Positions 3,595-24,523 of a DNA stretch of 32,784 nt are shown piece by piece. The stretch comes from an uncultured Gammaproteobacteria bacterium (GTDB lineage Bacteria > Patescibacteriota > Microgenomatia > Levybacterales > UBA12049): assembly GCA_964364925.1 (NCBI GenBank), contig CAYIOB010000002.1, positions 1 through 32,784 of the forward strand, given 5' to 3'. The position numbers and the translations under genes were made by a program. Numbering within the stretch: position 1 is the first letter of the stretch; the number at the start of each line of letters is the position of its first letter. The notes under the pieces are model-generated. The model worked only from the letters and a program-made list of their open reading frames with translations. It made no database searches and had not been told where the DNA came from.

Positions 3595-4251
3595 CTATTC
3601 TTTTCCTTCCCATTCTTTATAAAACTTCTTAAGAAATTTTTCCATATATTTATGTCTTCTAAGAGCGATTTGCCTTGCGGTTTTAGTATTCATTCTGTTT
3701 TTTAAGAGCAGGAGTTTTTCGTAGAAATGATTAATCGTCGGACTTTTGCTATTTTTATATTCTTCAAATGAATTATGCATTGTTGGCTTTGAGTTTGGGT
3801 TGTGAATTTCCTGCCCCATTTTTCCTCCGTAAGCAAAAGTCCTGGCAATTCCAATTGCGCCAATCGCGTCTAATTTATCCGCGTCCTGCACAACCATCCC
3901 TTCTTTTGTTTTCATCTGGGACTTTACGTTTGCTCCCCTAAAACTTACAGTCTTTATAATTTGGTAAACGTGCTCGATATATTTTTCTTCGACATCAAGA
4001 GTTTCGAGCCACGTCCTTGCGGTTTTTGGTCCGATTTCTTCGTCCCCTCCGTGCAATTTCCAGTCGGCAATATCATGCAAAAGAGCAGCTATTTCTATTA
4101 CAAACATCTCAACATTCTTTTCTTTCTTTCCGATATATTTTGCCATTTTCCAAACCCTATAAACATGCCACCAGTCATGTCCGCTACTTTCCCCTTCCAA
4201 GGTTTTCTTGGCATAATCCGCAGTTTTTTGAATGATTATTTTTTTATTCAT
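3595..4251 (-). CDS. HD-domain phosphohydrolase (YedJ/YpgQ-like)
   Basis: HDWWHVYRV, LLHDIADWK, DADKLDAIGAIGIARTF: the His...HD...D metal-binding pattern of the HD superfamily. Confidence 0.85.
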   Translation of the reverse strand: MNKKIIIQKTADYAKKTLEGESSGHDWWHVYRVWKMAKYIGKKEKNVEMFVIEIAALLHDIADWKLHGGDEEIGPKTARTWLETLDVEEKYIEHVYQIIKTVSFRGANVKSQMKTKEGMVVQDADKLDAIGAIGIARTFAYGGKMGQEIHNPNSKPTMHNSFEEYKNSKSPTINHFYEKLLLLKNRMNTKTARQIALRRHKYMEKFLKKFYKEWEGKE

Positions 4252-4437: not shown

Positions 4438-4758
4438 TCAATTTCTAGAGCATGGATAAATTACAAAATCTTGTGGAGGTTTTTCAGACTCATGCACCCA
4501 TATGGCTTCCCATAGCATAACTCGACTACTGCATCTAGGTAAACCTTCAATAAGCCTTACTTTTGTCGCGGTGGCAACGCTAACCGACGAAGGGTCATAT
4601 TCTAATGAAAATTGCTCAAGTGTAACCCTGGCTCTCTCTATATCTACTTGAGAAGTTTCAAAATCTATAACTGTAGCCGTTTTGGTAACCAACATTGATG
4701 TTTTTTTCAGATAAACCGGCTCCATCTCTCTCATATATCGGATTATATTATTCTGCAT
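4438..4758 (-). CDS. Hypothetical protein (106 aa), orphan
   Basis: ATG-to-TGA ORF with no recognisable motif. It looks more G+C-rich than neighbouring housekeeping genes and is divergent from rpmE. Confidence 0.4.
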   Translation of the reverse strand: MQNNIIRYMREMEPVYLKKTSMLVTKTATVIDFETSQVDIERARVTLEQFSLEYDPSSVSVATATKVRLIEGLPRCSSRVMLWEAIWVHESEKPPQDFVIYPCSRN

Positions 4759-4813: not shown

Positions 4814-4842
4814 TTGTATTGAGTTCCTATTTACGGTATAAT
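4814..4842 (+). promoter_or_regulatory. Sigma-70-like promoter of rpmE (TTGTAT-N17-TATAAT); the ATG is 7 nt after the -10
   Basis: -35 at 4814-4819, -10 at 4837-4842, spacer 17 nt, then attgagt-ATG (4850). Confidence 0.5.
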
Positions 4843-4849
4843 ATTGAGT

Positions 4850-5137
4850 ATGAAACAGGCGATTCACCCACAATATTTTGATAATGCGCAGGTTATATGT
4901 GCTTGCGGAAACACATTTACAACTGGAAGCACTCTGGAGACAATCCGTGTGGAACTTTGCAGCAAATGCCACCCCTTTTATACGGGCGAACAAAGATTTG
5001 TTGATTCAGGTTCAAAGATTCAAAAATTTCAAGCCAAACAAGAAGCTGCAAAAGAATACGTTGCCAAGAAAAAAGAAGTTAAAAAAGATAACTCCGGACC
5101 GCAGACACTCCGCGAAATGCTTGACGCATTAAAATAG
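4850..5137 (+). CDS. rpmE: 50S ribosomal protein L31 (Zn-binding type A)
   Basis: MKQAIHPQY.., CACG...[10 protein letters not shown]. The ORF-track start at 4844 is a TTG two codons upstream; the ATG at 4850 is preferred. Confidence 0.9.
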
Positions 5138-5190
5138 CCCTCCTTTGCCAAGGCTTCGGAAGGGCAAGTCCCTTTCCCGCGCCAAGGATC
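5138..5190 (+). terminator. GC-rich hairpin cluster between rpmE and prfA (possible terminator/attenuator)
   Basis: GCCCTCC...GGAAGGGC and AGGGcaagtCCCT stems lie in an otherwise AT-rich context. There is no clean U-tract. Confidence 0.3.
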
Positions 5191-5209
5191 TAAGGAGACA
5201 AAACTTCCT

Positions 5210-6154
5210 ATGGAAGATTACAGATTGATACAGCTTCAAGAATTGGATAAAAAAATCGAGGAAACAAAAACTCTTCTTTCAGACCCTTCTTTGGCCGAAA
5301 TGGCAAAAGCAGAAATTGCGGATTTGGAAAAACAAAAAGCAGAAATTGAGGCAACTTTTCAAACCAACAAAGAAGAAGCAGACGATTCCCTGGACACAAG
5401 AAACGTAATTATCGAAGTATCGGGGGCGGCAGGCGGCGAAGAAGCAAAAATTTGGGGGCAGGATCTTTTGCGGATGTATTCAAGATTTGCCCAGATTAAA
5501 GGATTTAAAATTGAGACATTGGACGAAAACGTAATTAAAGTGGAAGGCAAGGGGCCTGCCCGCAATGCTTCGCAACGCGATGCGGGCGGGGCTTTTGAAT
5601 TGTTTAAGTACGAGGCAGGAGTTCACAGGGTGCAAAGAACTCCCGAGACTGAAAAACGGGGCAGAATTCATACCTCTACCGCAACCGTTTCTGTTTTGCC
5701 GGAACTTGAAGATATTGATTTACATATCAACCCCGACGATATTACTTTTGAAGCTTTTAGAAGCGGCGGACACGGAGGGCAAAATGTTAATAAAGTTTCA
5801 ACAGCGGTAAGACTTATTCATAAACCAAGCGGCATTATCGTTACCTGCCAAACTCAAAGGTTTCAGGCGCAAAACCGAGAGCTGGCAATGGAAATGTTAA
5901 GAGCAAAGCTTTGGGAAGCCGAAGTAGAAAAACAGCACGGAGAAATTTCAAGCTTAAAAGCAACCCAAGTTGGCCGCGGCATGCGGGCCGAGAAAATAAG
6001 AACTTATAATTTCCCCCAAGATAGGCTGACAGACCATAGAATTAATAAGTCCTGGCATAATCTTGAGGCAATTTTAGAAGGAAACCTAAACCAAATCATT
6101 GAGGATATGCGGGTTTTAGAAACTACTGCAGATACTCCAAATCCTTCTGTTTAA
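5210..6154 (+). CDS. prfA: Peptide chain release factor 1 (short, 314 aa)
   Basis: GGQ motif ([12 protein letters not shown]), PxT-type anticodon tripeptide ([14 protein letters not shown]), SD AAGGAG upstream. Confidence 0.88.
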
Positions 6155-7997: not shown

Positions 7998-8684
7998 ATG
8001 GAATTGACGCTCATTGAAAAAAAGCAGGAAACTCTAGACGCTGTTTCGTTTTTTTTCAAACCATCCTTCCCTATTTTATGGACTCCCGGGCAGTTTCTAA
8101 TTTACAATCTTGAGCATAAAAATCCGGATATCAGAGGAAAAATGCGTTTTTTTACAATTTCCTCCGCTCCTTTTGAAAACCATATTGCAATTACTACTAA
8201 AATTGACGACAAAACTCCCAGCAGTTTTAAAAAAGCATTAAACCAAATCCCAATTGGCGGAAAAATACAGACAAAAGGGCCGGACGGAAATTTTGTTCTG
8301 GAAGACGTATTTGCGGAGTATGTTTTTATTGCCGGCGGAATAGGAATTACGCCGTTTAGACCGATTATTCTTGATTTAGCAAACGATAAATCTCCGATAA
8401 ACGTTACGCTTTTATATGCAAATAAAACCGGAGACATTCTTTTCAAGAACGAGCTTGAGGAAATTGCAAAATCAAACCCAAACTTTAAAATTAATTATTT
8501 TATAAGCCCAAATCACATTGACGAAGATTCTATCAAGAAACTTGTACCCAATTTGAAACAGCCTTTATATTATATTTCCGGACCAAATAATATGGTTGAA
8601 GATTTACTAGCCGTATTAAAAAAATTAGGAGTTGAAGACAAGAGAATAAAACTTGACTATTTCCACGGCTACGAAACAATTTAA
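7998..8684 (+). CDS. Ferredoxin-NADP reductase-like FAD/NAD(P)-binding oxidoreductase
   Basis: FAD-binding RFFTISS (RxYS-type) and NAD-binding FIAGGIGITPF; two-domain FNR fold length (228 aa). Confidence 0.8.
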   Translation: MELTLIEKKQETLDAVSFFFKPSFPILWTPGQFLIYNLEHKNPDIRGKMRFFTISSAPFENHIAITTKIDDKTPSSFKKALNQIPIGGKIQTKGPDGNFVLEDVFAEYVFIAGGIGITPFRPIILDLANDKSPINVTLLYANKTGDILFKNELEEIAKSNPNFKINYFISPNHIDEDSIKKLVPNLKQPLYYISGPNNMVEDLLAVLKKLGVEDKRIKLDYFHGYETI

Positions 8685-11409: not shown

Positions 11410-12164
11410 AAAACAATTAAGGATTTGTTTTCCGGATCAAGATAAACCTGCTTTTTGTTATGCTTAACCAGTTTATCAAAATCTCCTTCTTCTATTTGCA
11501 CAACCGGCGATTTTATTGCCTTTTCTTCCAAATCTTCAAAGTCGCTTTCCCTTATTTGGGCGCCAATTACCCCCAATGCTCCGAGAGCAAATACTTTAAA
11601 AATTGAACCTTTTGCGAAGTTTTTACCTAAAACTATCTTTTTGGCAACTTCTGCAGTTATTTTACCAAAATCTATCTCTTCGTCCTCTATTACGAATAAT
11701 TCTCCCCTTACCTCTTGCCCCCCTGCTCTTTTTGCAACTATGGCCTGCTTTTCTGTTTTTATGACGATTTTATCATTATTACAGAAATCAACAATTCCAT
11801 CAACGGGAGAAATGATGGTAATTAAACTTCTGTCTCCCGAATCCGTATGAATTAATACATCCCCCTTATCTTCGTCAATTTTAATTATTGTTCCTGAAAA
11901 TTCGCTGATAATTTTTTTTGTCCCAAGTCCCAAACGGCCTTTTTTTACTGCCAAAACATCTCCTTTGGAAACGCTGTCTCCCAAATTTTTTCTTAAAGTT
12001 TTTGCGATTTTTTTAGGAGAAATGCGCAGAATTTGAAAAACGTGGATAACCTCTTCGATGCCCTTTTCTTTTTTTTCTGCAATAATTTGGCCTGCCGTTA
12101 ACTTATCGTTAACAGAAACTTTCGGAGTAAAGCCTTCTGGAAGAAGAACCGGCAGTAAAGTCAT
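11406..12164 (-). CDS. Hypothetical protein with lipoyl/barrel-sandwich-hybrid-like segments
   Basis: 252-aa ORF translationally coupled to the S41 peptidase. It has repeated G-D-x-V/L beta-hairpin-like segments (KGDVLAVKKG, SGTIIKIDEDKGDVLI). No confident family assignment. Confidence 0.55.
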   Translation of the reverse strand: MTLLPVLLPEGFTPKVSVNDKLTAGQIIAEKKEKGIEEVIHVFQILRISPKKIAKTLRKNLGDSVSKGDVLAVKKGRLGLGTKKIISEFSGTIIKIDEDKGDVLIHTDSGDRSLITIISPVDGIVDFCNNDKIVIKTEKQAIVAKRAGGQEVRGELFVIEDEEIDFGKITAEVAKKIVLGKNFAKGSIFKVFALGALGVIGAQIRESDFEDLEEKAIKSPVVQIEEGDFDKLVKHNKKQVYLDPENKSLIVL

Positions 12165-14177: not shown

Positions 14178-15263
14178 TTAAGCGCCTATCTTGAATTCAA
14201 TTACATCTCCGTCTTTGACTATATAATCCCTTCCTTCAAGCCTGTCCTTTCCGTGTTCCCTTGCACCTTTCCAACCATTAAATTGAACAAAATCGTCAAA
14301 GGAAACAACTTCCGCTTTTATAAATTTTTTAGTAAAGTCCGTATGAATAACCCCTGCGGCATTTACTGCATTTGTTCCTTTTTTGATAGTCCATGCCCTT
14401 ACTTCTTTTTCTCCACAAGTTAAAAAAGAAATTAAATTTAAAATTTTATAACCTTCTTTAATAACCCTTTCCAACCCTGAAGTTTCAAAACCCAAATCCT
14501 TTAGATATTCTTTCTGTTCTTCTTGCGATAATTCCGAAAGCTCGCTTTCTGTTTTTGCGCAAACCGGAATTGTATCTTCGCCGTAATCTTTACCTAAATC
14601 TTCCTCGTCAACGTTTGCAACCGTAAACATCGGTTTAGCAGTTAAAAGCTGCAAGCTTTTTGCCGCAGTTTTTTCATCTTCGTGTAATTCAACGTCTTTT
14701 GCGAGTTTGCCTTGGTCAAGTGCGATTTTAAACTTTTGGACCGCCGACCATCTATGTACGTCTTCCTTCGTGGGACTTTTTTTGGGCTCCTGCTGTTTTT
14801 CCAGAGTCTGCAAATCTGCCAAGATTAATTCCGTGTTAACCACTTCGAAATCATTTTTCGCGTCTTTAGAGCTGTCGGAACGCACAACATTCCCATCTTT
14901 AAAATACCGGACAACCTGACAAATTGCGTCCGCCTCCCTGATATGGGACAAAAATTTATTTCCCAATCCTTCTCCAACAGCCGCTCCTTTTACCAAGCCT
15001 GCAATATCTACAAATTGAACGACCGCCGGTACTATCGGCGGAAGTGAAACCCTGAGCGAAGTCGAAGGGACTGACAGTTCATTTGCTGTAATTTCTGCTA
15101 ATTTTTGAAGGCGGGTATCAGGAACAGGTACAACGCCGATGTTTGGCTCTATTGTGGCAAAAGGATAATTAGCAACAAACGCCTGTTGTTTCCTCAACAG
15201 CGCGTTAAACAGCGTAGACTTTCCAACGTTCGGTAAACCCACTATACCTATAGACAAACTCAT
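14178..15263 (-). CDS. ychF: Ribosome-binding ATPase YchF
   Basis: IGIVGLPNVGKSTLFNALL P-loop, DIAGLVKGA, C-terminal TGS-like VIHTDF..FIKAEV..GKDY.V.DGDV. TATAAT lies 8 nt upstream of the ATG. Confidence 0.92.
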   Translation of the reverse strand: MSLSIGIVGLPNVGKSTLFNALLRKQQAFVANYPFATIEPNIGVVPVPDTRLQKLAEITANELSVPSTSLRVSLPPIVPAVVQFVDIAGLVKGAAVGEGLGNKFLSHIREADAICQVVRYFKDGNVVRSDSSKDAKNDFEVVNTELILADLQTLEKQQEPKKSPTKEDVHRWSAVQKFKIALDQGKLAKDVELHEDEKTAAKSLQLLTAKPMFTVANVDEEDLGKDYGEDTIPVCAKTESELSELSQEEQKEYLKDLGFETSGLERVIKEGYKILNLISFLTCGEKEVRAWTIKKGTNAVNAAGVIHTDFTKKFIKAEVVSFDDFVQFNGWKGAREHGKDRLEGRDYIVKDGDVIEFKIGA

Positions 15264-15287
15264 ACTGAAGAATTATAGCAGAATTAT

Positions 15288-15455
15288 TTACTCTTTAGTC
15301 GTACCTACTATACAACCACAATTTGCACAATAAACCAAAAGGAAACTAACTCCATTAATCAACTGTCTTTTTGTTTTTAACCCGCTGTGATACTCATTAG
15401 GGTGCAACGTTGTCTCACCGCATCCTGGACATTTTGGATCTTTATCGTTTGGCAT
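15288..15455 (-). CDS. Unannotated 55-aa zinc-ribbon protein (CPGC...CANC), translationally coupled to the upstream ATPase
   Basis: My translation: MPNDKDPKCPGCGETTLHPNEYHSGLKTKRQLINGVSFLLVYCANCGCIVGTTKE. The SD GGAGGTGA lies inside the last codons of the ATPase gene, 7 nt before this ATG. The ORF is below the track's size cut-off. Confidence 0.55.
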   Translation of the reverse strand: MPNDKDPKCPGCGETTLHPNEYHSGLKTKRQLINGVSFLLVYCANCGCIVGTTKE

Positions 15456-15458
15456 AAA

Positions 15459-17099
15459 TTATTCACCTCCAAATTGTTTTTCTTTTGCTTTTTTTAGGGC
15501 ATTTATAAACACGCCCATATTAGCTGTGAAATCTTGCTCTGAAATCCTATTAGCAACATCTTCTGCGTATGCTACTTTTCCAGGATTATTGTTAATATCA
15601 TTAGGCTCGGCCTTATACGGAGAGGGGTAATATTTTTCAAGACTGGATTCAGATAGCTCAAAATATCTACCATCAGTTAAAAGCTCTGCATGATCTGTTT
15701 TAAACTTATTATATTTTTCGTTATCACCTGTCGAACCCGAACTAGCGTCGGCAACGACTACAACTCGTGAAGAATAAGGATTGGTTTTAGCTTTAAAATA
15801 TTGATATGCCATATCTATAAAAGTAATGCTCTTTGATTGCTTGGTAACATCCCCATTTGCTGGAACTATTTGTATATTTTTGAAATCAGTTGGATAAAAT
15901 CTTTGAATTATCTTTTGTAAAAATTTTACTTCTGAGTATCCCTCGACAATTAAAATATTGGAAGGAAGCAATAAGTCTTTGGGATTACCACCTAAAAGAT
16001 CAAAAACCACTAATGGTTTTTCAGAATCACTAATTCGTGTAACATTTGTAATCTTATTTGTTTTCTCAACCTTAAAAATATACTGATCAGAATTATTATC
16101 TACAACTAATACTGATGAATGAGTATTGATTAAAACTTGGTCTCCTCCCGATGAAACATCAACGAGTGCGTCTTTTAGAGCTCTTTGTGCTGTTGGATGC
16201 AAATGTAACTCTGCTTCATCTATTAAAAAAAGGAAATCTTTGGATTCGCCTTTAGTTTTCCTAAAATCAGCATATGTTTGAATTATCGCTAGCATTAAAG
16301 CCCTCTGCATGCCATCGCCTTTTTCCGAAGAATCGTTCTCTATTCCATCATTAATCGTAGTCCTGAATTTCTTAAACAAATCCTCCAATTCAGGATTTTC
16401 AACCTTAAATTTTACATCTATACAATCTGGGAATTGTTTTTTCAAAAATTCTGCAACCGTTAGTCCTACTTTATCTATTTCTTTTCTAATATCTGTTATG
16501 TCTTCTGGGTCGGAAGGATCTCCAAAGAGCTCGTTGAACATTTTTTTAAATTCTCCATATTTTCCGTCTGTTTCAAGCATACTTTCCAAAACAGCAGAGA
16601 GAATCTTGCTTATCGGAGTAGCTTTGCCATACTTTGCTACATCGTCAAGAAGTTTTTTTGTACTTACAAATTCTAGAGTTGGAAGAAATTGTCGCCAAGT
16701 GCTGTCCCTACCCAAAGGGTTTTCCCACTCATTAGTTTTTGGATTAAAAAGTTGCCTGTCTTCTCCATCCTCATATGAACTTAATCTACGAATTTTGATT
16801 AAATCTTCCGTCTCAAAAATTTCTTCCATTAGTTTTTTTTGCTTTTCATTTGTAAAAAAACTTAATGCTTTTTGTAATCCCGAAAATTCTAACTCTACTA
16901 GAACTTCTTTTGTTTCGTCTTTCATGAATGATATGTCTTCCATCTCTCCTGATGGAACATAAAACCAATCAATTGCTTCAAATAGGTTTGTTTTACCGTG
17001 ATTATTTTGTCCAACAAAAATGTTAAACTGAGAAATTTCTAAATTCTCTATCACTTCTATTGATCTAAAATTCTTAACCGTTACCTTGGTTATTTTCAT
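15459..17099 (-). CDS. OLD-family-like ATP-dependent nuclease: ABC/AAA_15-type ATPase with a Toprim-like C-terminal domain
   Basis: KVTVKNFRSIE, Walker A GQNNHGKTN, signature-like GDGMQRAL, Walker B/D-loop FLFLIDEAELHLHP, H-loop INTHSS. The C-terminal ILIVEGYSEVKF...VPANGD...VVVVADAS resembles OLD/DUF4435 Toprim. ATG at 17099 is preferred over the TTG at 17108. Confidence 0.75.
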   Translation of the reverse strand: MKITKVTVKNFRSIEVIENLEISQFNIFVGQNNHGKTNLFEAIDWFYVPSGEMEDISFMKDETKEVLVELEFSGLQKALSFFTNEKQKKLMEEIFETEDLIKIRRLSSYEDGEDRQLFNPKTNEWENPLGRDSTWRQFLPTLEFVSTKKLLDDVAKYGKATPISKILSAVLESMLETDGKYGEFKKMFNELFGDPSDPEDITDIRKEIDKVGLTVAEFLKKQFPDCIDVKFKVENPELEDLFKKFRTTINDGIENDSSEKGDGMQRALMLAIIQTYADFRKTKGESKDFLFLIDEAELHLHPTAQRALKDALVDVSSGGDQVLINTHSSVLVVDNNSDQYIFKVEKTNKITNVTRISDSEKPLVVFDLLGGNPKDLLLPSNILIVEGYSEVKFLQKIIQRFYPTDFKNIQIVPANGDVTKQSKSITFIDMAYQYFKAKTNPYSSRVVVVADASSGSTGDNEKYNKFKTDHAELLTDGRYFELSESSLEKYYPSPYKAEPNDINNNPGKVAYAEDVANRISEQDFTANMGVFINALKKAKEKQFGGE

Positions 17100-17218
17100 A
17101 TAATCCAATCATTGTGGATGGGCGGGGCTTTTTGAGGTCTCGTCCAGGCACATTTTTATTACCTGAAATTTTACTGTGAATATATTAGCAGAAACTTTCA
17201 GAGATTGCTAGTATCAAA

Positions 17219-17241
17219 CTCCCCTTTTTGCCTGTTGTCAA
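17219..17241 (-). promoter_or_regulatory. Motif copy A: TTGACAACAGGCAAAAAGGGGAG (minus strand), upstream of the ATPase gene; its TGA is the stop of the 151-aa ORF
   Basis: 23 of 23 identical to 18390-18412. Confidence 0.6.
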
Positions 17242-17693
17242 TTGCTTTGGAGGGATATGACCAGAGCGCGAAGTTCTTCGGATGGTCTTCTTGTTCCAAG
17301 TAAAGAGGCCGGTATTTTGCCGGATAAACTTTCGTTTGGTTTAGTCCACCAATCGCCACGAGCTAAGTCATCCCGAAGACTTAATGCCGATACCCTGACT
17401 AACCAATGTACCCCACCATTTTCTTCAAACTGAAACGTCGGATAGACATATCCTTTCGTTGTTTTAATCCTAATAGCACCTATACCTGTTCCCAATCTAT
17501 ATCTTCGTTCGCCGGACATTTCAGATTGTCTTACTGTTGGATACTCATTTAATATTCTCGCTGCAAGCTCTATCCATCTTTCCCTATCATGTCCAGAAAG
17601 CGATGAGGGTATTACCGGAATGATTGAGTCAGTCACCCGAATAGGTCTTTTCCCATCTAATGCTTCAGTCATAGCTGTAAAAGATACACCCAT
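17238..17693 (-). CDS. MbcA/ParS/Xre-antitoxin toxin-binding-domain (DUF2384)-like protein, 151 aa, no HTH recognisable
   Basis: The C-terminal half YVYPTFQFEENGGVHWLV...WWTKPNESLSGKIPASLLGT..SEELRALVISL fits my recollection of the YPxFQF...W..PN..L.G..P..LL pattern of this family. The N-terminal half is unassigned. Confidence 0.5.
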   Translation of the reverse strand: MGVSFTAMTEALDGKRPIRVTDSIIPVIPSSLSGHDRERWIELAARILNEYPTVRQSEMSGERRYRLGTGIGAIRIKTTKGYVYPTFQFEENGGVHWLVRVSALSLRDDLARGDWWTKPNESLSGKIPASLLGTRRPSEELRALVISLQSN

Positions 17694-17709
17694 TTTTGCC
17701 TCTTGTCAA
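17691..17709 (-). promoter_or_regulatory. Motif copy E (short form): TTGACAAGAGGCAAAA directly followed by the ATG of the 151-aa ORF
   Basis: The minus strand reads TTGACAAGAGGCAAAAATG. AGAGG could serve as the SD. Confidence 0.45.
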
Positions 17710-17777
17710 CTTGAGAATTTGTTGATTTACTCTTCAAACTACTCTTCAACCCCAGGGGTTGAGCCTCGAAGATATTT

Positions 17778-17797
17778 CTCTTTTTGCCTGTTGTTAA
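17778..17797 (-). promoter_or_regulatory. Motif copy C (degenerate): TTAACAACAGGCAAAAAGAG; its TAA is the stop of the 193-aa ORF
   Basis: Two substitutions relative to copies A and B over the shared 20 nt. Confidence 0.5.
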
Positions 17798-18375
17798 TCG
17801 GATTCCCAATAATTTGGGTCACTGAATCCTTCTCTAAAAAGAAAATAGGAAGCAACAAATCCCGAAAATACAGAATTTTCAAAAATAGATTCATCCTGCC
17901 CAGTTATTTCCTCATCTAATGCCTGATAAGCTTCTTTTTCTAACATTACGAACAAGCCTCTCCGGACTTCTTCCTCTCTATCTGCTCCGGGAATACGCGA
18001 TCCCGGATAACTTCCGTAAACACTAATCAATCTATCATGTGCCAATGCGTCATAAATCTGAACAAATTCAAGACTTAATATAGGAATTTTTTGCTTACCG
18101 GCTTTTTCTTTAAAAATTTCATACGCTAGTGTAATTCCAATTCTAAATCCTTCATTTTCTAATCCCGAAAAATTGTTACTAATTGCCATTAGGTATCCAT
18201 TTGCATAAGGATTTTCCACATCAAGCAGCGGAGCTTTTAGGCTTAAATATTCGTCCCACGTTTTGTTAGAATCTTCAAATAAAGGCCTGACAACTGCTAT
18301 AACAGCATCCGCACCAATGGGATACTTAACTATTGAATCTTGAGGAATCTGCGAAACCCTTGCTTCAACTGTCAT
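17794..18375 (-). CDS. Hypothetical protein (193 aa), orphan
   Basis: ATG-to-TAA ORF preceded by TTGACA-N17-TATAAG and 8 nt. I recognise no family motif, and no R..E..S pattern of RES toxins is evident. Confidence 0.55.
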   Translation of the reverse strand: MTVEARVSQIPQDSIVKYPIGADAVIAVVRPLFEDSNKTWDEYLSLKAPLLDVENPYANGYLMAISNNFSGLENEGFRIGITLAYEIFKEKAGKQKIPILSLEFVQIYDALAHDRLISVYGSYPGSRIPGADREEEVRRGLFVMLEKEAYQALDEEITGQDESIFENSVFSGFVASYFLFREGFSDPNYWESD

Positions 18376-18383
18376 GAAAATTT

Positions 18384-18412
18384 CTTATACTCCCCTTTTT
18401 GCCTGTTGTCAA
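18384..18412 (-). promoter_or_regulatory. Motif copy B within a complete promoter: TTGACA-acaggcaaaaaggggag-TATAAG, 8 nt before the ATG at 18375
   Basis: -35 and -10 hexamers with a 17-nt spacer. The spacer and -35 together are the conserved motif. Confidence 0.6.
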
Positions 18413-18423
18413 ACGCAAAGCTA

Positions 18424-19536
18424 CTATTCTAGATATTTTTTGAAAAATTCTACAGTGTTTTGCATGGCTTGATTAAAAATTGCGCCGCTTAAATTATGGC
18501 CGCCGCTTGGATATTCGTTTAGTTCATGAGGTATCGAAGTTTGATCGAGAAGACTATTGAAATTCCTGCTGTAACGGATATCAACAACTGCGTCATCCAA
18601 TGCGTGATTCAGCGAAATTGCGCCTTTAATACCATCTAGGTAATTTGTCATGGGAACTTGTTTCCAGAAATCTGAACTAGGATCAAACTGACCGTATTTC
18701 TCAAACATTTCATTTCTTTTTTTTCTGCTTAGTGAGTCAGATGGCGGCGGCTGGTAAGAATTGTCTTCAATACTAAACTCCGAAAAATCCGAATACGTGT
18801 AAACTGCTCCCGCAAAGATTACAATTGCCGGGATTTGAGGACTTGCTGCTAATGCCCGCGCAATAACATTCCCCGCCATTGAGTGCCCCCACAGCCCAAT
18901 TGCATCCGGATTAACAAAATCCGAAGCCTGCAAAGCAGCCCTTGCGTTAAGAGTATCAATAATATAATCTGACGAATAATATCCTCCACCAGGCTCTCCC
19001 TCACTCTTTGCGTGCCCCCGAAGGTCAATTTTAAAAACAACGAATCCGTTTTTTGCCAGATAATCAACGTATACTGAATAATTTTCTAACGTCTGATAAT
19101 TTTGCGGAGGGATATAACCGTGGACAAAAACAATTGCCGGCCATCCGCCGACAGGCTTTTTTCCGGGCGGAACTGTTAATAAACCATTTATTCTCAAACC
19201 GTCCGAAGTATAACTTGCCAGATAAGATGTAAAGCCAGAATTCCTGCTGCCGACTTCCCTCATTTCAGAAAGATTGCTCTCGTAAGAACGCTGTCTTAGG
19301 TAAGGGATTGTAAGCTCCTGAAAAGGAAAAGGGGTTGGGGTCGGTAAAACGCCGGAAACTTCATTAGCTTTGGACGCCGTTTCGCTTAAGCTGCCATTAT
19401 TCTTAATGGAAAAGTAAAAAGTCCCAAAAACAAATAGGTTAAAAAACAAAAACGCACCCAAAAAAAGTAAAAATCTTTTTTTCTTTTCCGGTGTTTTTAA
19501 TATTTTAAGTTCATCTTTAACTTCTTCTTCTTCCAT
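18424..19536 (-). CDS. Membrane-anchored alpha/beta hydrolase (S9 prolyl-oligopeptidase / dienelactone-hydrolase-like)
   Basis: N-terminal TM helix, WPAIVFVHGYIPP, nucleophile elbow GLWGHSMAGN, C-terminal GGHNL. Paralog of 22115-23161. Confidence 0.85.
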   Translation of the reverse strand: MEEEEVKDELKILKTPEKKKRFLLFLGAFLFFNLFVFGTFYFSIKNNGSLSETASKANEVSGVLPTPTPFPFQELTIPYLRQRSYESNLSEMREVGSRNSGFTSYLASYTSDGLRINGLLTVPPGKKPVGGWPAIVFVHGYIPPQNYQTLENYSVYVDYLAKNGFVVFKIDLRGHAKSEGEPGGGYYSSDYIIDTLNARAALQASDFVNPDAIGLWGHSMAGNVIARALAASPQIPAIVIFAGAVYTYSDFSEFSIEDNSYQPPPSDSLSRKKRNEMFEKYGQFDPSSDFWKQVPMTNYLDGIKGAISLNHALDDAVVDIRYSRNFNSLLDQTSIPHELNEYPSGGHNLSGAIFNQAMQNTVEFFKKYLE

Positions 19537-19537
19537 A

Positions 19538-20128
19538 TTAGACGTCCTCTATATAATACCTTACTTCTTCTCTCTCGGGGTTTAGTAAATTATAAAGATA
19601 GGTTATGTCAGAATCGGAATGCCGGACACAACCCGAACTCCCTAAGTCTTCTTTTGAAAGCTTTGAAAGGTTTCCATTTATTCCGTGGAGACCGAAATAT
19701 CCCGGCAGACTCCAGTTGCATTGCCCATTACACTCAGCATAAGGATTTGGTCCGAAAGGCTCTTCTTCTGTTACCGGAACATCCAGGGTTAGAAAATATG
19801 GTGCGGTTTCTGGGTTGTCGGCTGAGCTTTCTTTTTTGGTAATAAGCCAGAAATCTCTTCTCAAAAGCTTTGGCAAAGGTGTCGGGCTTATGGACAAATT
19901 ACCTGTCTTAACTTGAAAAGTTTTTAAAAGCCGGCTATTATCTTTATCGCCAAAAACGCCATAATATAAATATTCAACATTTGATTTTCTATGAAGAAGA
20001 AGCCAATAATGTTTTTGCGGTATAATGGCGTTGTGCTTTTGCATAAGCTCTGGCTTAAAAGCAAACCAGCCTGAAAATCCTACTAGGATTAAAATTAAAA
20101 CAGCCAAAAGTAAAACTTTTTTTTGCAT
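19538..20128 (-). CDS. L,D-transpeptidase (YkuD domain) with N-terminal membrane anchor
   Basis: Catalytic motif LHGINGN....GSSGCVRH. Start set to the ATG at 20128 (MQKKVLLLAV...) rather than 20167. Confidence 0.78.
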   Translation of the reverse strand: MQKKVLLLAVLILILVGFSGWFAFKPELMQKHNAIIPQKHYWLLLHRKSNVEYLYYGVFGDKDNSRLLKTFQVKTGNLSISPTPLPKLLRRDFWLITKKESSADNPETAPYFLTLDVPVTEEEPFGPNPYAECNGQCNWSLPGYFGLHGINGNLSKLSKEDLGSSGCVRHSDSDITYLYNLLNPEREEVRYYIEDV

Positions 20129-21277
20129 ATGGAGTATTCTAACAAAAATATCGCAAATATTGAACAAACTGAAAAACCTAAGGGCAAACGAAAACTTTTC
20201 GCTGTTCTTTTTTTATTAGTGCTCATTACCGCTATTGGTGTATCATGGTTTTTCCTTCAATCGAAACTTGAACAGCCAATCGTCAGTAATCAGCCGTCAA
20301 TAATCAGCTCTTCGCCCTCTCCTACCCCCTACGCCTTACCGCCTATCCCCTCGGGTAGGGTTTTAGCGACCGACTATCACATTTTCCAAACATTTAACAA
20401 TTGCGGACCGGCTGCGCTTTCAATGGCCTTACGATTTTATGGAATTAATGTAAGCCAAGCAGAACTTGGAAATGCACTGCGCCCCTATCAGGTTGCGGGA
20501 GGAGATAATGATGATAAATCAGTAACTTTAGAAGAGTTAGCGGAAAAAAGTAAAGAATATGGATTAATACCATATCATCGTCCGGCAGGAACACCGGAAC
20601 AAGTTAAATATTTTATTGCCAATGATATACCTGTTATTGCCCGGACTTGGACAAAACCTAATGAGGATATTGGTCATTACAGAATTATAAAGGGGTACGA
20701 TGATCTTCGCGGAGTTTTTATTCAGGACGATTCTTTGCAAAATAAAAATCTTGAATACACTTATGAAGATTTTAATGAGATATGGAAAAAATTTAATTAT
20801 GAGTTTTTAGTCCTTGTTCCTCCGGATAAAAAAGAAATAGCAGATGCTATCTTAGGGGAAAATGCCGATGAAAAGACTGCTTGGCAAAAGGCTGTTGAAA
20901 ACTCGGAGATTGAGCTTAACAAAAATCCAAACGATACATACGCTAGGTTTAACCTTTCTGTCGCCTACTATAACGTTGGGGATTACAAAAGTTCAACGCG
21001 TGAATTTGAAAGAATCGAAGGCTTACTTCCCTTCCGCACCCTCTGGTATCAGATAGAACCTATACAAGCTTATTATGAACTAGGAAATTACGACAGAGTT
21101 TTTGCCATAACCGACAAAGTTCTCAACTACCACAATCGCGCCTTCTCAGAACTTTATATTTTAAGAGGTAAAATTTATCAGAAACAAGGAAGAACCGATG
21201 AAGCCCGCGCGGAATTCCAAAAAGCGTTTCTGTATAATACAAACTTAAAAGAAGCTCGTGATTTACTAAATTCCTAG
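20129..21277 (+). CDS. Membrane-anchored C39-like cysteine peptidase domain fused to TPR repeats
   Basis: FNNCGPAALSMALRFYG (C39/BtrH-like catalytic Cys context), HYRIIKGYDD, C-terminal TPR-like repeats (ARFNLSVAYYNVGDY..., ILRGKIYQKQGRTDEA). ATG at 20129 is preferred over the TTG at 20123. Confidence 0.78.
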   Translation: MEYSNKNIANIEQTEKPKGKRKLFAVLFLLVLITAIGVSWFFLQSKLEQPIVSNQPSIISSSPSPTPYALPPIPSGRVLATDYHIFQTFNNCGPAALSMALRFYGINVSQAELGNALRPYQVAGGDNDDKSVTLEELAEKSKEYGLIPYHRPAGTPEQVKYFIANDIPVIARTWTKPNEDIGHYRIIKGYDDLRGVFIQDDSLQNKNLEYTYEDFNEIWKKFNYEFLVLVPPDKKEIADAILGENADEKTAWQKAVENSEIELNKNPNDTYARFNLSVAYYNVGDYKSSTREFERIEGLLPFRTLWYQIEPIQAYYELGNYDRVFAITDKVLNYHNRAFSELYILRGKIYQKQGRTDEARAEFQKAFLYNTNLKEARDLLNS

Positions 21278-21297
21278 CTTTCGTCCACTCCTAATGA

Positions 21298-21996
21298 CTA
21301 AGCTGCTGCGGGAAGAGCCTGAAATTGTTCTCCCTGAGATTTTAAAAGAGGCATTTTTTGAATTTCCCCGATTAATTGAACGTCAAAAAACCGAGCCGGA
21401 TCAGCACCCTTCCGCCTGTCCTTCTTTGGAATTTTTACACGATCTTCTCTTAATAGGCAGTATGCGTCTATTTGTTCCTGGCTGAGGGCAATTTGTTGCT
21501 CCGGCGGTAAGGGTCCCCCGGGCCCCAGGGGGTTATTGTGTCTATAAACAAAGCCTTCTGCTTGTGATATTGTTGGTTTATGAATCTTAATTCTTTCTCT
21601 TTCATCGGGTCTTCTTTGCAATCTTTCCACCCTTGCGATGATAGCTCTATGTAAACCCTCACTGAGTCTTCCGCCCGCATCGCGATATGCAGCAAATCCA
21701 TTTTTTAATCTGGTTTCTTTGGCGGCAAAAGCAGCTTTTCTTCTTTCCTTCTCGGCAAAAGTAACCCAATCGATAGAACCTACTTTATCTACTAATCTTG
21801 GTTCACGTAATGAAACTGGTTTTCCTTGCTCTAAAATAATTTCAGGGACGACTACAGGGGCTTGAGCTTCAAAGGGAGCTGGCGCTCGCATGCCTGGATC
21901 TTTATCACAAGATAAAGCCATAATTTGATATTCAACTATTGCTTGTGAAAAGTCAATAGGTAAATCCTTCGACGTAAGTGTATCAAAAAATATCAT
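21298..21996 (-). CDS. Hypothetical protein (about 232 aa), orphan; Arg/Pro-rich and visibly G+C-richer than its flanks
   Basis: The ORF lies entirely inside the segment bracketed by the duplicated TPR-gene 3' end. The track start at 22005 is a TTG inside a TTGACA; the ATG at 21996 is used here. No domain recognised. Confidence 0.45.
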   Translation of the reverse strand: MIFFDTLTSKDLPIDFSQAIVEYQIMALSCDKDPGMRAPAPFEAQAPVVVPEIILEQGKPVSLREPRLVDKVGSIDWVTFAEKERRKAAFAAKETRLKNGFAAYRDAGGRLSEGLHRAIIARVERLQRRPDERERIKIHKPTISQAEGFVYRHNNPLGPGGPLPPEQQIALSQEQIDAYCLLREDRVKIPKKDRRKGADPARFFDVQLIGEIQKMPLLKSQGEQFQALPAAA

Positions 21997-22037
21997 TCCT
22001 GTCAAGACTATAGGTTATCTTGAGTTTCTCCTGACTT

Positions 22038-22109
22038 GCCGAATTCCAAAAAGCGGTTTTATATAACTCGGGTCTAAAAGAAGCAAAGAACTTACTTTCT
22101 GCTATTTAA
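22038..22109 (+). pseudogene. Orphaned, diverged duplicate of the last ~23 codons of the C39-TPR gene
   Basis: It translates to AEFQKAVLYNSGLKEAKNLLSAI*, versus AEFQKAFLYNTNLKEARDLLNS* at 21208-21277. It contains a 15-nt identical core, gaattccaaaaagcg, and an in-frame TGA lies just upstream. Confidence 0.65.
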
Positions 22110-22114
22110 GATAT

Positions 22115-23161
22115 CTATCGAAAAATTCTACTGATCTTTGCCGCTGCTATACCAAAATTTGAAGCCATATTATGGTCATCACCCGGATATGTATATAACT
22201 CTACTGTTTTCCCGGCCTCCTGCATTTGCTTTTCCAAAGTTTGTGAAAACTCTACAGGGACTGAGATATCAGCAGTTCCATGATGAAGCTGAATTGGCCC
22301 TGAAATATCTTTTAGGAATGAATTAGCAGAAAGACCGTTCCAAAAAGTTGGATTCTGGGAAGGTTCTCCAAACTGCACTGATAAAGTTTGCCTCCAGCTT
22401 CCTCCCCTAGTTGACGGAGTGGGGGTTGCGGAGAGGGCTCCGGATGGTGCCCTTCTCCTCCATCTTTCAAAAAGATCCTGATATGAAACTACAACTCCGG
22501 CCCAGATAACACCTGCTTTTATATCTTTGTTTACCACCATTGCTCTAAGAGTAATAAACCCTCCCATTGAATGTCCCCACATGCCAATTTTTTGAATATT
22601 AACTCCTGGATATTTTTTTAAAGACGCAAGAGCGTTTAAAACATCAATCGTATAACCGTTTGATCCATAAGCTCCTGATGGATTTCCTTCTGAATCTCCA
22701 TGTCCTCTGTAATCTGGTCTAAGTAAAATATATCCATTTCTTGAAAATGCATCTGTATAAGCAATATATCTTTCAGTTGTTCTATATTGTGCGGGTGGAA
22801 TATATCCATGGTTAAAAACAATTGCCGGGAATCCCTTTTCTGGCGGCGTACCATTTGGAACAGTAAATAAAGCATATATTTTAAGACCTTCTGATAGGTA
22901 CGAAACAATGTATCTTTTGTAGTTACTGCCTGGTGTAAGAGTTTCTTCAATTACCAAATCGCTTCCAGGATAATTTCCTTTTTTAAGCGCTTCTATTGAA
23001 AGACTGAATGGTTCTTCTTGCATCTCTCCACCCATATTGTCTGTAAAATCTGTTTGGGGAGAAGTATTTAACTTTGAGATATCATTGTATTTTGAATATA
23101 CAAAAACCGCGGAGAATAATATAAAAATTAAAGCTAAAAATATTACCTTACTTTTAAACAT
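22115..23161 (-). CDS. Membrane-anchored alpha/beta hydrolase (S9-like), paralog of 18424-19536
   Basis: FPAIVFNHGYIPPAQYRT and GMWGHSMGGF parallel the paralog. ATG at 23161 is preferred because TGcTATAAT sits 6 nt upstream; the track start is 23179. Confidence 0.85.
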   Translation of the reverse strand: MFKSKVIFLALIFILFSAVFVYSKYNDISKLNTSPQTDFTDNMGGEMQEEPFSLSIEALKKGNYPGSDLVIEETLTPGSNYKRYIVSYLSEGLKIYALFTVPNGTPPEKGFPAIVFNHGYIPPAQYRTTERYIAYTDAFSRNGYILLRPDYRGHGDSEGNPSGAYGSNGYTIDVLNALASLKKYPGVNIQKIGMWGHSMGGFITLRAMVVNKDIKAGVIWAGVVVSYQDLFERWRRRAPSGALSATPTPSTRGGSWRQTLSVQFGEPSQNPTFWNGLSANSFLKDISGPIQLHHGTADISVPVEFSQTLEKQMQEAGKTVELYTYPGDDHNMASNFGIAAAKISRIFR

Positions 23162-23178
23162 TAAAAAATTATAGCACA

Positions 23179-23201
23179 TTCCCCTTTTTGCTTCTTGTCA
23201 A
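23179..23201 (-). promoter_or_regulatory. Motif copy D: TTGACAAGAAGCAAAAAGGGGAA upstream of the second hydrolase
   Basis: Matches the 17219/18390 motif at most positions and is followed by TGcTATAAT. Confidence 0.5.
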
Positions 23202-23212
23202 CCCCGATTGGA

Positions 23213-23229
23213 CCCCGATTCTATCGGGG
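23213..23229 (-). terminator. Hairpin CCCCGAT-N3-ATCGGGG downstream of the NUDIX gene (same stem as 8974-8990)
   Basis: Perfect 7-bp stem. An extra CCCCGATT half-site lies at 23202-23209. Confidence 0.35.
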
Positions 23230-23265
23230 GAACTCGGCGTCAAGGCTAATGGTATAAATTCTTGG

Positions 23266-23733
23266 CTATACCAGAGGTTTTATCCGCTTAAGAGCCTCAT
23301 TTATAAGAAAAAGGTGATTAGTTGAAATATCAGGCAAGTTTTCAAATGAAAAATAAGAAGCCTCGGAGACCTCTTTAGTAGGTTTAAATTCTCCGCCGAT
23401 ATGCTTTCCGATAAAACAAATATCCAGTCTCGCTGTTTCTCTATCTGTTTTAACGTTATGCTGATAATCTGCGCTAACAATAAAACCCGTCTCTTCTTCT
23501 ATCTCACGCTCTAAACCTTCAGTCGGATGTTCTCTTCCTTTAATATAACCTCCCGGCAGACTCCAGGGCGTCTGTCTGTAGGTATGCTTGACTAAAAGAA
23601 CCTCATTTTTTTCATTAAAAATAATTCCCGTTACTCCAATTAAAAATTGATCTTGAAAAATACGCATAAAAAATAACTGGAAATTTTTAGAGAAATCAAA
23701 GAGTCGCCAAATTTTTGCGAGGTAGTTCTTCAC
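23266..23733 (-). CDS. NUDIX hydrolase
   Basis: Nudix box GGYIKGREHPTEGLEREIEEETGF. The GTG at 23733 overlaps the upstream stop (GTGA); an alternative ATG lies at 23667. Confidence 0.85.
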   Translation of the reverse strand: MKNYLAKIWRLFDFSKNFQLFFMRIFQDQFLIGVTGIIFNEKNEVLLVKHTYRQTPWSLPGGYIKGREHPTEGLEREIEEETGFIVSADYQHNVKTDRETARLDICFIGKHIGGEFKPTKEVSEASYFSFENLPDISTNHLFLINEALKRIKPLV

Positions 23734-24074
23734 AGAGATTTATCGTCTTTATTGCTGGAATTGCTTTCCGCTTTTAATCTTTCATTTTCCAGTTCCAGCT
23801 CATGAACCCGCTTTGTTAAATCGGCTATTTCTTTCTTGGCTTCTTTAATCTTGCTTTCTTTCCCGTGCAAAGTGAAAAAAGAAGAAACAAAACCGACCAA
23901 ACTAATAACCCAACTAACAAAGATGCCGGAAAGTATTGCTCCCAAAATAATTAAATACATCGGGATGTTGCTAAAAGTGTATTGCGCAAAAGTTATACTT
24001 GCAGGCTGCGTATTCTGGGTTGAAAATAAACCAACCCCGGCACCGAAGACAATTAAAATAATTAAGCCAACCAT
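23730..24074 (-). CDS. LapA-domain (DUF1049) membrane protein with a C-terminal coiled coil
   Basis: Two TM helices with the ...NTQPASITF...IPMYLIILGA... layout, followed by a KEIADLTKRVHELELENERLK coiled coil. Confidence 0.65.
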   Translation of the reverse strand: MVGLIILIVFGAGVGLFSTQNTQPASITFAQYTFSNIPMYLIILGAILSGIFVSWVISLVGFVSSFFTLHGKESKIKEAKKEIADLTKRVHELELENERLKAESNSSNKDDKSL

Positions 24075-24169
24075 ATTATGATAATAAATCAGTATAATAA
24101 CATTTGCAACAGGTATTTTACTGTTTAACCATTCTTCTCTTAAGTTAATCCGGAAATTCCAAGATAAAT

Positions 24170-24523
24170 TTATTGAGAAAATTGGGAGGCGTCGGCTGTA
24201 TTCTGATTAAGATCTGTTTCTACTGCTGCGGGATTTGTATTATCAATCTGTTCGAGAGCATTGTTAACATCCTGGATGTTATTGATTGGCACCGGGGTTG
24301 TTACTGTCTGTCCGGCAAGAGGCTGCTGATTCGTGCCGTTTGTCTGCGCCGCCGGATTTTGCTGTATCCCTTGTGACACTGCCGGCTGGTTATTAGGTTG
24401 CATGATTTTTACCAGAACAACGGCAAGAAGAAGAACTGCCAAAAGAGAAAACCCAACTGCGGCATAAAGAAATTTTTTATGACTCTGCGGTACTGTTGTT
24501 TGCTGTATGCTTTGATCTTCCAT
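24170..24523 (-). CDS. Hypothetical single-pass membrane protein with a Gln/Asn-rich ectodomain
   Basis: TM helix FLYAAVGFSLLAVLLLAVVLV; SD AAGGAAA upstream. Confidence 0.55.
   Translation of the reverse strand: MEDQSIQQTTVPQSHKKFLYAAVGFSLLAVLLLAVVLVKIMQPNNQPAVSQGIQQNPAAQTNGTNQQPLAGQTVTTPVPINNIQDVNNALEQIDNTNPAAVETDLNQNTADASQFSQ

Follow-up and report, generated by a model that had tools for sequence, protein, structure and literature searches.

The integron consists of the integrase gene intI, the site attI, the promoter Pc and a series of attC sites, which are folded and 55–140 bp long. This article concerns a locus of partly similar layout, a variable gene array in a 32,784-nt stretch of DNA (contig CAYIOB010000002.1 of assembly GCA_964364925.1; the whole stretch is referred to as the window) that is punctuated by a 23-nt motif, M (TTGACAACAGGCAAAAAGGGGAG), with five minus-strand copies between positions 17219 and 23201. 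The array as a whole (15264..24169, minus strand), delimited by synteny with the related genomes G001 and G002 and by locus maps, extends over 8.9 kb, contains about 11 genes, and is bounded by two conserved genes, ychF (14178-15263) and the gene for a 117-aa protein (24170-24523). We find that the array is variable, that M stands at most of its joints with a fixed polarity, that arrays cease to be homologous to one another where M begins or ends, and that M has promoter geometry. With a probability that we put at roughly 0.45, that is, somewhat below even odds, we read M as a portable promoter half, made up of a -35 element plus spacer, that may at the same time be the joint at which the cassettes of a lineage-specific array recombine, the exchange being anchored in M. 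The array lies immediately upstream of ychF in a small clade of Levybacteria-like Patescibacteria.

Like an integron array, the locus is a single chromosomal docking site for a string of unrelated, mostly single-gene cassettes, with a repeated site of constant polarity at the joints and with toxin-antitoxin, defence and accessory content that differs between close relatives. Unlike an integron array, it has no adjacent or clade-specific integrase, its repeat is 23 bp long, asymmetric and unstructured, each joint brings its own -35 element and spacer whereas an integron relies on one Pc, and the cassette genes are found in either orientation. The Neisseria-type hotspots, or “minimal mobile elements”, are similar in that variable genes are placed between core genes without a dedicated mobility gene, and in that turnover probably occurs by recombination with related DNA; they are not known to have a conserved internal punctuation motif, whereas here a 23-bp block stands at most internal joints. 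The Acinetobacter pdif modules and the integrative mobile elements exploiting Xer (IMEX) are small modules with short bounding sites that use the housekeeping Xer and have no enzyme of their own, and the genome studied here likewise contains only two Xer-like recombinases. M, however, is without a dif-like dyad, its copies are direct rather than alternating, and no switch of GC skew is seen.

Two further comparisons concern the coupling of a joint to a promoter. The vsp, vpma and vsa loci of Mycoplasma resemble the array in having a conserved short 5' sequence for each gene, a single locus, a reduced genome, and a coupling of promoter and recombination; they differ in that they are made up of paralogous lipoprotein genes with inverted sites, a recombinase at the locus and phase variation, in contrast to the unrelated genes, direct sites and lack of an adjacent recombinase seen here. 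In hybrid promoters formed by the -35 element of an insertion sequence (IS) end, a mobile joint contributes one half of a promoter and a resident or incoming -10 contributes the other, and phage morons are self-contained units of promoter, gene and hairpin inserted between other genes; unlike both, the array has no IS, transposase, prophage or match in viral contigs. By analogy, the locus would seem to behave like a sedentary integron array or a core-gene recombination hotspot. It lacks the defining features of the integron, an adjacent integrase and a folded attC. In searches of the full-text literature we found no account of a 23-bp promoter half doubling as a cassette joint in a chromosome of the candidate phyla radiation.

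Motif copies, array variation and breakpoints

A preliminary description of the window had pointed out two identical 23-nt copies of the motif on the minus strand, a degenerate copy and a short copy between them, and a fifth relative ahead of a paralogous hydrolase gene, and all five were recovered, all on the minus strand. A pattern search of the window, allowing up to 3 mismatches to M, returned copies A (17219-17241) and B (18390-18412) as exact matches, and copies D (TTGACAAGAGGCAAAAATGGGTG, 17687-17709) and E (TTGACAAGAAGCAAAAAGGGGAA, 23179-23201) with 3 mismatches each, whereas copy C (TTAACAACAGGCAAAAAGAGAAA, 17775-17797), with 4 mismatches, was obtained from the assembly-wide search. 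Copy E lies ahead of the gene for alpha/beta hydrolase 2, one of two secreted alpha/beta hydrolases of the array that are 36% identical. When the sequence was shuffled 100 times with its dinucleotides preserved, the mean number of matches at up to 3 mismatches was 0.00, compared to the four observed. The host assembly, of Patescibacteria type and from a groundwater bacterium, comprises 831,850 bases in 87 contigs, has a GC content of 37% and is 89.6% complete; it contains no copy of M at up to 4 mismatches beyond these five, and its one match at 5 mismatches (C5:18426) and seven matches at 6 mismatches are chance-like. The five copies are therefore confined to 6 kb of the 832-kb assembly. Because M is absent elsewhere in the assembly, it is not a general promoter, and the idea that it might head a large share of ordinary genes was not borne out. 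Most of the genomes used in this study are incomplete and fragmented metagenome-assembled genomes, so that “nowhere else” covers the assembled sequence only.

In two other species of the genus, the flanks of the array are kept at 78–97% protein identity (60–70% for ychF) while the inner genes differ. The segment of G001, for example, is 2.9 kb long and holds 4 genes, different from the roughly 11 genes in 8.9 kb of the window; its order is M, a reversed starch synthase gene, M, a Phd/ParE pair, M, a reversed gene for a 163-aa protein, M and ychF, all four copies of M being contained in this one stretch. Gene content between copies of the motif thus differs between related genomes, a comparison that the preliminary description had suggested. 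A scan of the family at up to 3 mismatches found M in 11 of 194 genomes, belonging to 6 of 89 genera, and a reversed control pattern gave 0 matches in all 194. Scans with a degenerate form of M over species-representative genomes and metagenome contigs revealed further loci, many with 2–6 clustered copies. At up to 5 mismatches, we counted 42 copies in 18 loci and 16 in 6 more, for a total of 58 copies in 24 loci; the genomes are kin, so that neither copies nor loci are independent counts. By our own arithmetic, about 2 chance matches are expected for the degenerate 22-mer in 596 Gb. Loci L023, L024, L028/L044, L031, L033, L041 and L047 were left out as probable chance matches (GC-rich or from unrelated taxa), L032 and L048 duplicate L040 and L030, respectively, and L021, set aside at first, was shown to be genuine through G128.

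All 58 copies of M lie on the ychF strand and none on the opposite one, whatever the orientation of the cassettes; the reversed genes beside M include those for starch synthase, riboflavin kinase and the 163-aa protein. In every locus that extends far enough (14/14), ychF follows the last M at a distance of 46 to about 6,300 nt, and the gene immediately upstream of ychF is different in nearly every lineage. The spaces between copies hold 1–5 genes in either orientation, and some are gene-less and only 65–130 nt long. According to Pfam, the arrays carry toxin-antitoxin genes (Phd/ParE, BrnT with a CopG-type antitoxin, Gp49-like), nucleases (PIN, NYN, OLD), enzymes (several NUDIX hydrolases, glycogen enzymes, riboflavin kinase, an adenylate-kinase-like protein), and also inositol monophosphatase, a HAD hydrolase, cupins, and MFS and CDF transporters. 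M is kept across lineages whose ychF genes share just 65–78% nucleotide identity, and it is conserved at least as well as the adjacent coding sequence.

The sequence upstream of ychF was scanned in 19 regions that represent other genera within the family and the order (a 20th region was too short); 18 had no M at up to 6 mismatches, and L059 had one 6-mismatch match, which is at chance level. Among upstream-of-ychF regions of other genera, M was seen in G032 only. The same 19 regions contained no analogous array-type repeat of at least 3 copies, apart from a few 16-mers present three times.

Comparison of joints between arrays by BLAST places the breaks in homology at the edges of M. Homology of the window with L037 begins at base 1 of copy E (23201), and in the NUDIX cassettes of L037 and L039 the homologous stretch opens immediately behind one M and closes with base 23 of the following M. 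In L046, a cassette with an HD-domain gene (4818-5471) is flanked by M on both sides, while its homologue in the window (3595-4251, minus strand, 72% nucleotide identity) lies outside the array and has no M. A unit consisting of a -10 element and a NUDIX gene has been inserted in L042 exactly between base 23 of M and the -10 of ychF, without a second M being added; in G001 the -10 of ychF comes directly after M. Joints of G002 are marked by copies of M with internal deletions, and in L043 one copy is split mid-way, one half being joined to a piece that resembles a second repeat type, M'. The preliminary description had proposed either a regulator-binding site or a recombination or cassette junction, and the breaks at the edges of M agree with a junction. 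No regulator or recombinase was found, however, so that “regulator-binding site” and “recombination site” are functions that we infer.

Several repeats and genes were recorded alongside these arrays. The repeat M' (TTGCAAA.G..C.AAAAGGGGAG) has an extra conserved 5' extension of 11 nt and was seen in L030 (oriented positions 8185 and 10823) and in L092/G128 (oriented position 4745), in arrays that also contain canonical M. Further sub-families with an additional shared flank have the form TTGAC-hairpin-M and CCACTAGCC-M. A Ser/Thr/Pro-rich secreted repeat protein of 409–457 aa (cluster c23) is found in the arrays of G002, G032, G125, G127, G128, L029, L036, L039 and L043, always reversed with respect to ychF and with differing cassettes on its promoter side; it is a long-standing resident of the array.

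Promoter geometry of the motif

M is composed of 6 + 17 bases, the hexamer TTGACA followed by a full-length spacer, and all 23 positions are conserved in 40 non-redundant copies. Positions 1–6 are T (100%), T (100%), G (93%), A (90%), C (95%) and A (100%), and position 8 varies between C and G. The edges are sharp, with 0.06 bits at position -1 and about 0.1 bits at positions ≥25, and base 24, directly after M, is T in 78% of the copies. The copies were gathered by similarity to M, which inflates conservation within the 23 bases and does not create the edges. The pattern TAnnnT follows M directly in 11 of 42 copies, compared to a background of 2.0% (binomial p = 5e-10), and near-fits to a -10 at the 17-nt spacing also occur, such as TATAAG after copy B.

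The preliminary description had assigned to copy B a -35 box and a 17-nt spacer, which holds exactly for copies B and D, both of which read TTGACA-N17-(-10)-N8-ATG. For copy B (18373..18389, minus strand), TATAAG (18389-18384) comes directly after the motif and is followed by 8 nt and by the ATG (18375-18373) of the 193-aa gene. For copy D (17670..17686, minus strand), TATCTT (17686-17681) is followed by 8 nt and by an in-frame ATG (17672-17670), which is likely the true start of a 151-aa open reading frame (ORF). The assignment does not hold for copy E and for many relatives, where the -10 lies 20–28 nt after TTGACA and M cannot be its -35: copy E (23159..23176, minus strand, for the elements after it) is followed by an extended -10, TGCTATAAT (23176-23168), then 6 nt and an ATG (23161-23159) that is the likely start of hydrolase 2, and the spacing from TTGACA to this extended -10 (TGnTATAAT) is 22 nt. 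The gene ychF has an extended -10 of its own, TGCTATAAT (15280-15272), followed by 8 nt and by its ATG (15263-15261; 15261..15280, minus strand), with no adjacent M; the same promoter precedes ychF in L020 and a NUDIX cassette in L042. On the reverse strand of M, bases 9–14 read TTGCCT; at four junctions, 17 nt separate this hexamer from a divergent gene's -10.

The architecture of genes in the host genome agrees with a promoter placed so close to the start codon. For 684 crude ORF starts, we counted 145 boxes that resemble TATAAT, many of them in the form TGnTATAAT, with their ends 6–9 nt ahead of the ATG (168 ORFs when the range is taken as 5–10 nt), TTG is enriched genome-wide at the 17-nt spacing upstream of such boxes, and words resembling a Shine-Dalgarno sequence are present at -16 to -4 in just 65. 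Leaderless-type gene starts thus dominate the genome. Ordinary promoters of the same genome show no conservation of the spacer. According to PMC12641261, strong promoter spacers follow an AT / GC / AT / G-rich pattern and the spacer alone had effects of up to 600-fold; the pattern is matched by the order ACA / GGC / AAAAA / GGGGAG of the spacer in M.

Known element types and competing explanations

Searches for an enzyme or an RNA gene at the arrays gave negative results throughout. Pfam detected no recombinase or transposase in 35 ORFs of the window and 51 other proteins of arrays and flanks, and no serine recombinase was found. Just two PF00589 tyrosine recombinase genes are present in the host genome, one on contig C8 and the other on C70. 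When one of them served as query, 40 of 41 relatives gave a match and 35 of 41 had an orthologue (62–97% identical), and most relatives, including genomes without M, have a second recombinase, about 30% identical, that resembles the other one of the host genome; both are housekeeping, Xer-like enzymes. M does not fold (minimum free energy 0 kcal/mol, no pairs) and has no visible dyad symmetry. No tRNA or tmRNA was detected in the window or in 10 arrays, and no relevant Rfam match in the window, L018 and L042; four weak matches elsewhere are below gathering scores.

Known element types were considered in turn and rejected. An integron integrase does not adjoin the array, the two PF00589 genes being on other contigs and not clade-specific. 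M is unstructured and hence not attC-like, and no inverted copy is found in 24 loci. A dif/Xer or IMEX site would have a two-arm dyad and lie at the terminus of replication; no dyad is visible in M, and GC skew, which stays below zero throughout the window, does not change sign at the array. A search of the genome for dif-like sites with two consensus motifs gave matches at 7–8 mismatches only. An island targeted to a tRNA or tmRNA gene is not indicated, as there is no RNA gene at the array end that could be the source of an att site, nor is a phage or plasmid attP, as two pattern scans gave 0 matches to M in 2.9 million viral contigs. The end of a miniature inverted-repeat transposable element (MITE) or an IS was rejected because the 58 copies are all direct and no transposase family is present in the arrays. 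The promoter of an extracytoplasmic function (ECF) sigma factor was rejected as well: a sigma/anti-sigma pair stands beside four arrays and has its own palindromic AAC-N16-CGT promoter, unlike M, in the space between divergent genes. In the window genome, this ECF sigma factor is represented by no more than a distant homologue (26–30% identical, contig C17). The pair forms a trio with a secreted protein, the anti-sigma factor being a DUF5667 protein, that stands directly before the first M in L042 (4080-5900), L034, L046 and L040.

In the explanation that we prefer, M would be a single preserved block of 23 bp in which TTGACA is combined with the entire 17-bp spacer of a housekeeping promoter of the sigma-70 type, and a leaderless gene landing behind it with its own -10 would be transcribed; on the reverse strand, TTGCCT (bases 9–14) could act as the -35 for a divergent gene. 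As the sole sequence common to unrelated cassettes and related arrays, M would also be the exchange joint for gain, loss and reshuffling of cassettes. The most likely route would be recombination with related DNA that enters the cell, for which copies of M and neighbouring cassettes held in common would serve as anchors; in very compact intergenic spaces, only a few bases long, selection would retain only events that spare M and the next -10. No array-encoded integrase would take part. Several points weigh against this explanation. A consensus TATAAT lies 3–28 nt past M in 15 of 42 copies, that is, 20–45 nt from TTGACA, and M cannot be the -35 of that promoter. Copies before reversed genes or before no gene are kept equally well (0–2 mismatches), and conservation of all 23 bases regardless of what follows is not predicted by promoter function alone. 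Breakpoints exactly at 0 and 23|24 fit a sequence-specific enzyme more naturally, and 23 bp is near the lower limit for homologous exchange. The model leaves the first acquisition of M by a new gene unexplained. Finally, with genomes that are mostly incomplete, M is confined to the array only as far as the sequence has been assembled.

Some of these points favour a site-specific recombination or insertion site, comparable to an integron att, at which an enzyme encoded elsewhere, either one of the two Xer-like tyrosine recombinases or an unrecognised protein, would cut and join, the -35 being an add-on selected for expression of captured genes. Compared to the exchange we favour, a trans-acting sequence-specific enzyme gives a better account of the exact edges and of conservation irrespective of position, and it is also consistent with the uniform conservation of all 23 bases between sharp edges, the constant polarity of 58/58 copies, conservation that does not depend on what comes after M, breakpoints at base 1 and at 23|24, gene-less mini-cassettes between copies, the limitation to one locus per genome, and the L043 copy that is split mid-way and joined to a variant repeat type. 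We still regard it as doubtful. There is no recombinase in or beside any array and no candidate beyond the housekeeping recombinases, both of which are order-wide and present in genomes without M, while serine recombinases were not found at all. Core sites of tyrosine and serine recombinases have dyad symmetry and attC folds, whereas M, with neither dyad nor fold (minimum free energy 0), is unlike both. The sub-families with an extra shared flank (the 11-nt extension of M' in L030 and G128, TTGAC-hairpin-M, and CCACTAGCC-M) suggest copying with ragged ends, the L042 insertion brought no second M, and M is absent from the 2.9 million viral contigs. The more specific proposal of an integron-like capture system of candidate-phyla-radiation bacteria without integron integrase or attC, in which M would be both recombination site and promoter half for an Xer-type or other trans enzyme, is in our estimate unlikely.

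An operator role is possible and compatible with the other readings. That M is mainly an operator, a site for a trans-acting regulator over the -35 and spacer that puts the array under one control, its copies having spread with the cassettes, is quite improbable. The spacer is conserved beyond the usual need of RNA polymerase, a block of 23–24 bp that overlaps a promoter has the size of a footprint, and selection on M persists across lineages with 65–78% nucleotide identity in ychF. Yet the arrays have no conserved neighbouring gene for a DNA-binding protein in common; the sigma/anti-sigma pair at four arrays uses a different promoter (AAC-N16-CGT) and has only a distant homologue in the window genome; M is asymmetric and without repeat structure, its distance from the real -10 varies, and copies stand before reversed genes and before nothing. 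A one-locus regulon alone does not account for M at homology breakpoints either. Still less probable, and to our mind very unlikely, is a processing or termination signal acting at the RNA level in read-through transcripts, or the relic end of a MITE or IS. Orientation is constant relative to array transcription, the stop codons of upstream genes overlap M, and hairpins often precede it, all of which speak for such a signal; against it, M does not fold, no Rfam family, tRNA or tmRNA was found in three arrays, the hairpins belong to a genome-wide palindrome family with at least 18 sites, and neither inverted copies nor terminal inverted repeats nor a transposase were seen. As for a generic strong promoter or a chance repeat, the perfect TTGACA and the plausible -10 of some copies are what it would predict, but 4 matches in the window where chance predicts 0, the lack of M at all other genes of the genome, ordinary host promoters without spacer conservation, and 0 matches of the control pattern in 194 genomes leave it practically no likelihood.

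Patescibacteria have tiny genomes with few recognisable mobile elements, and how they maintain a flexible gene pool is poorly understood. The locus is a single docking site by an essential operon, in which the accessory, toxin-antitoxin and defence genes kept in store vary from one related strain to the next, and genes in the array are headed by the same ready-made promoter half. If M is indeed a recombination site, it would represent a new minimal way to capture and express genes: as both joint and promoter half, it would automatically switch on any leaderless gene captured behind it. Even if M is not a recombination site, it would be a natural and apparently strong promoter module for organisms without genetic tools, a sharp marker with which variation between strains could be followed in groundwater metagenomes, and a natural test case for the role of the spacer in promoters.

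Cassettes of the window and minor observations

Ordinary chromosomal genes flank the array (by Pfam, hisS, prfB, murB, rpsF-ssb-rpsR, ychF and transketolase); downstream of ychF there is an amidase gene and then rpsF-ssb-rpsR. In the direction of transcription of ychF, the first cassette (23266..24074, minus strand) consists of genes for a LapA-domain membrane protein (23730-24074) and a NUDIX hydrolase (23266-23733), both assigned by Pfam; it has no recognisable M in front, and the alignment of the G001 flank ends at 24155. The cassette with the secreted alpha/beta hydrolase 2 (22115..23161, minus strand; Pfam) has its right-hand joint near 22038/22039. The alignment of the window with L037 stops at 22038, and in one contig of run X5, from a related population, position 22039 is joined to a copy of the motif; this joint comes from four DNA runs that yielded fragmented contigs of the same strain and is weak, as only 23 nt match on the motif side. 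A multi-gene block without internal M follows (18424..22005), parts of which recur in L037, L045 and L091. It contains a 235-aa protein with no assigned family (21298-22005, minus strand) and, by Pfam, a C39 peptidase-TPR protein (20123-21277, plus strand), a YkuD-like protein (19538-20167, minus strand) and alpha/beta hydrolase 1 (18424-19536, minus strand).

The next cassette encodes a 193-aa protein with no Pfam family (17794..18375, minus strand), which is also present in L043 with 92% nucleotide identity and other downstream neighbours. It is separated by the mini-cassette described below from a cassette for a protein of about 144 aa (17238..17672, minus strand, if the likely start within the 151-aa ORF 17238..17693 is taken), whose match to the C-terminal domain of Xre/MbcA/ParS antitoxins is weak (E = 0.0013, below the cut-off). 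The 193-aa and 151-aa proteins may be a toxin-antitoxin-like pair split by two copies of M; the former also has a C-terminal motif in common with a 214-aa array protein of L030 (c91). The last cassette (15288..17108, minus strand) carries an OLD-family ATPase/TOPRIM nuclease (15459-17108; Pfam AAA_15, AAA_21 and OLD-like_TOPRIM) and a 55-aa ORF (15288-15455) that is Cys-rich, with four cysteines and no family; the two are possibly a two-gene defence unit. Stop codons inside the hexamer, another feature of the preliminary description, are present as described, the TGA of ORF 17238..17693 lying in the TTGACA of copy A and the TAA of 17794..18375 in the TTAACA of copy C. That a gene stops at the very point where the following module starts is accordingly true of copies A and C, whereas copy B is preceded by an 11-nt gap and copy E by intervening hairpins.

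Between copies C and D there is a gene-less mini-cassette of 65 nt (17710..17774, minus strand) with a 7-bp GC hairpin, detected by folding, whose predicted energy of -16.4 kcal/mol (z = -1.7) is not significant compared to shuffles; its homologue in L042 sits between two copies of M. Another gene-less element measures 130 nt and includes a perfect palindrome of 26 nt. In G001 (L018, about 11900-12020) it comes after the ParE gene, on its downstream side, whereas in L046 (4650-4779) it stands alone as a mini-cassette between two copies of M.

The hairpins before copies D and E fold no better than shuffles, and the GC-rich hairpins often seen ahead of M are members of a palindrome family that is spread over the whole genome and is not specific to the array. 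The family, CCCCGATT[T/A]AATCGGGG with close variants, has at least 18 sites in the genome, for example at about 8975 and at 23202-23250 in the window, and looks terminator-like or like repetitive extragenic palindromes. In three lineages (copy E of the window, L042 and G002) the palindrome is found between a duplicated TTGAC and M, as if inserted into M. Many short tandem arrays with units of 7–8 nt (ATACTAG, AAGTCAA, AATTTTG, AATAAGCA) are scattered over the genome, such as those at C1 about 20634, C3 about 13303 and 26123, C4 about 22840, C5 about 18143 and C9 about 11020, and a repeat with a period of 147 nt is present at C4 17814-18696.

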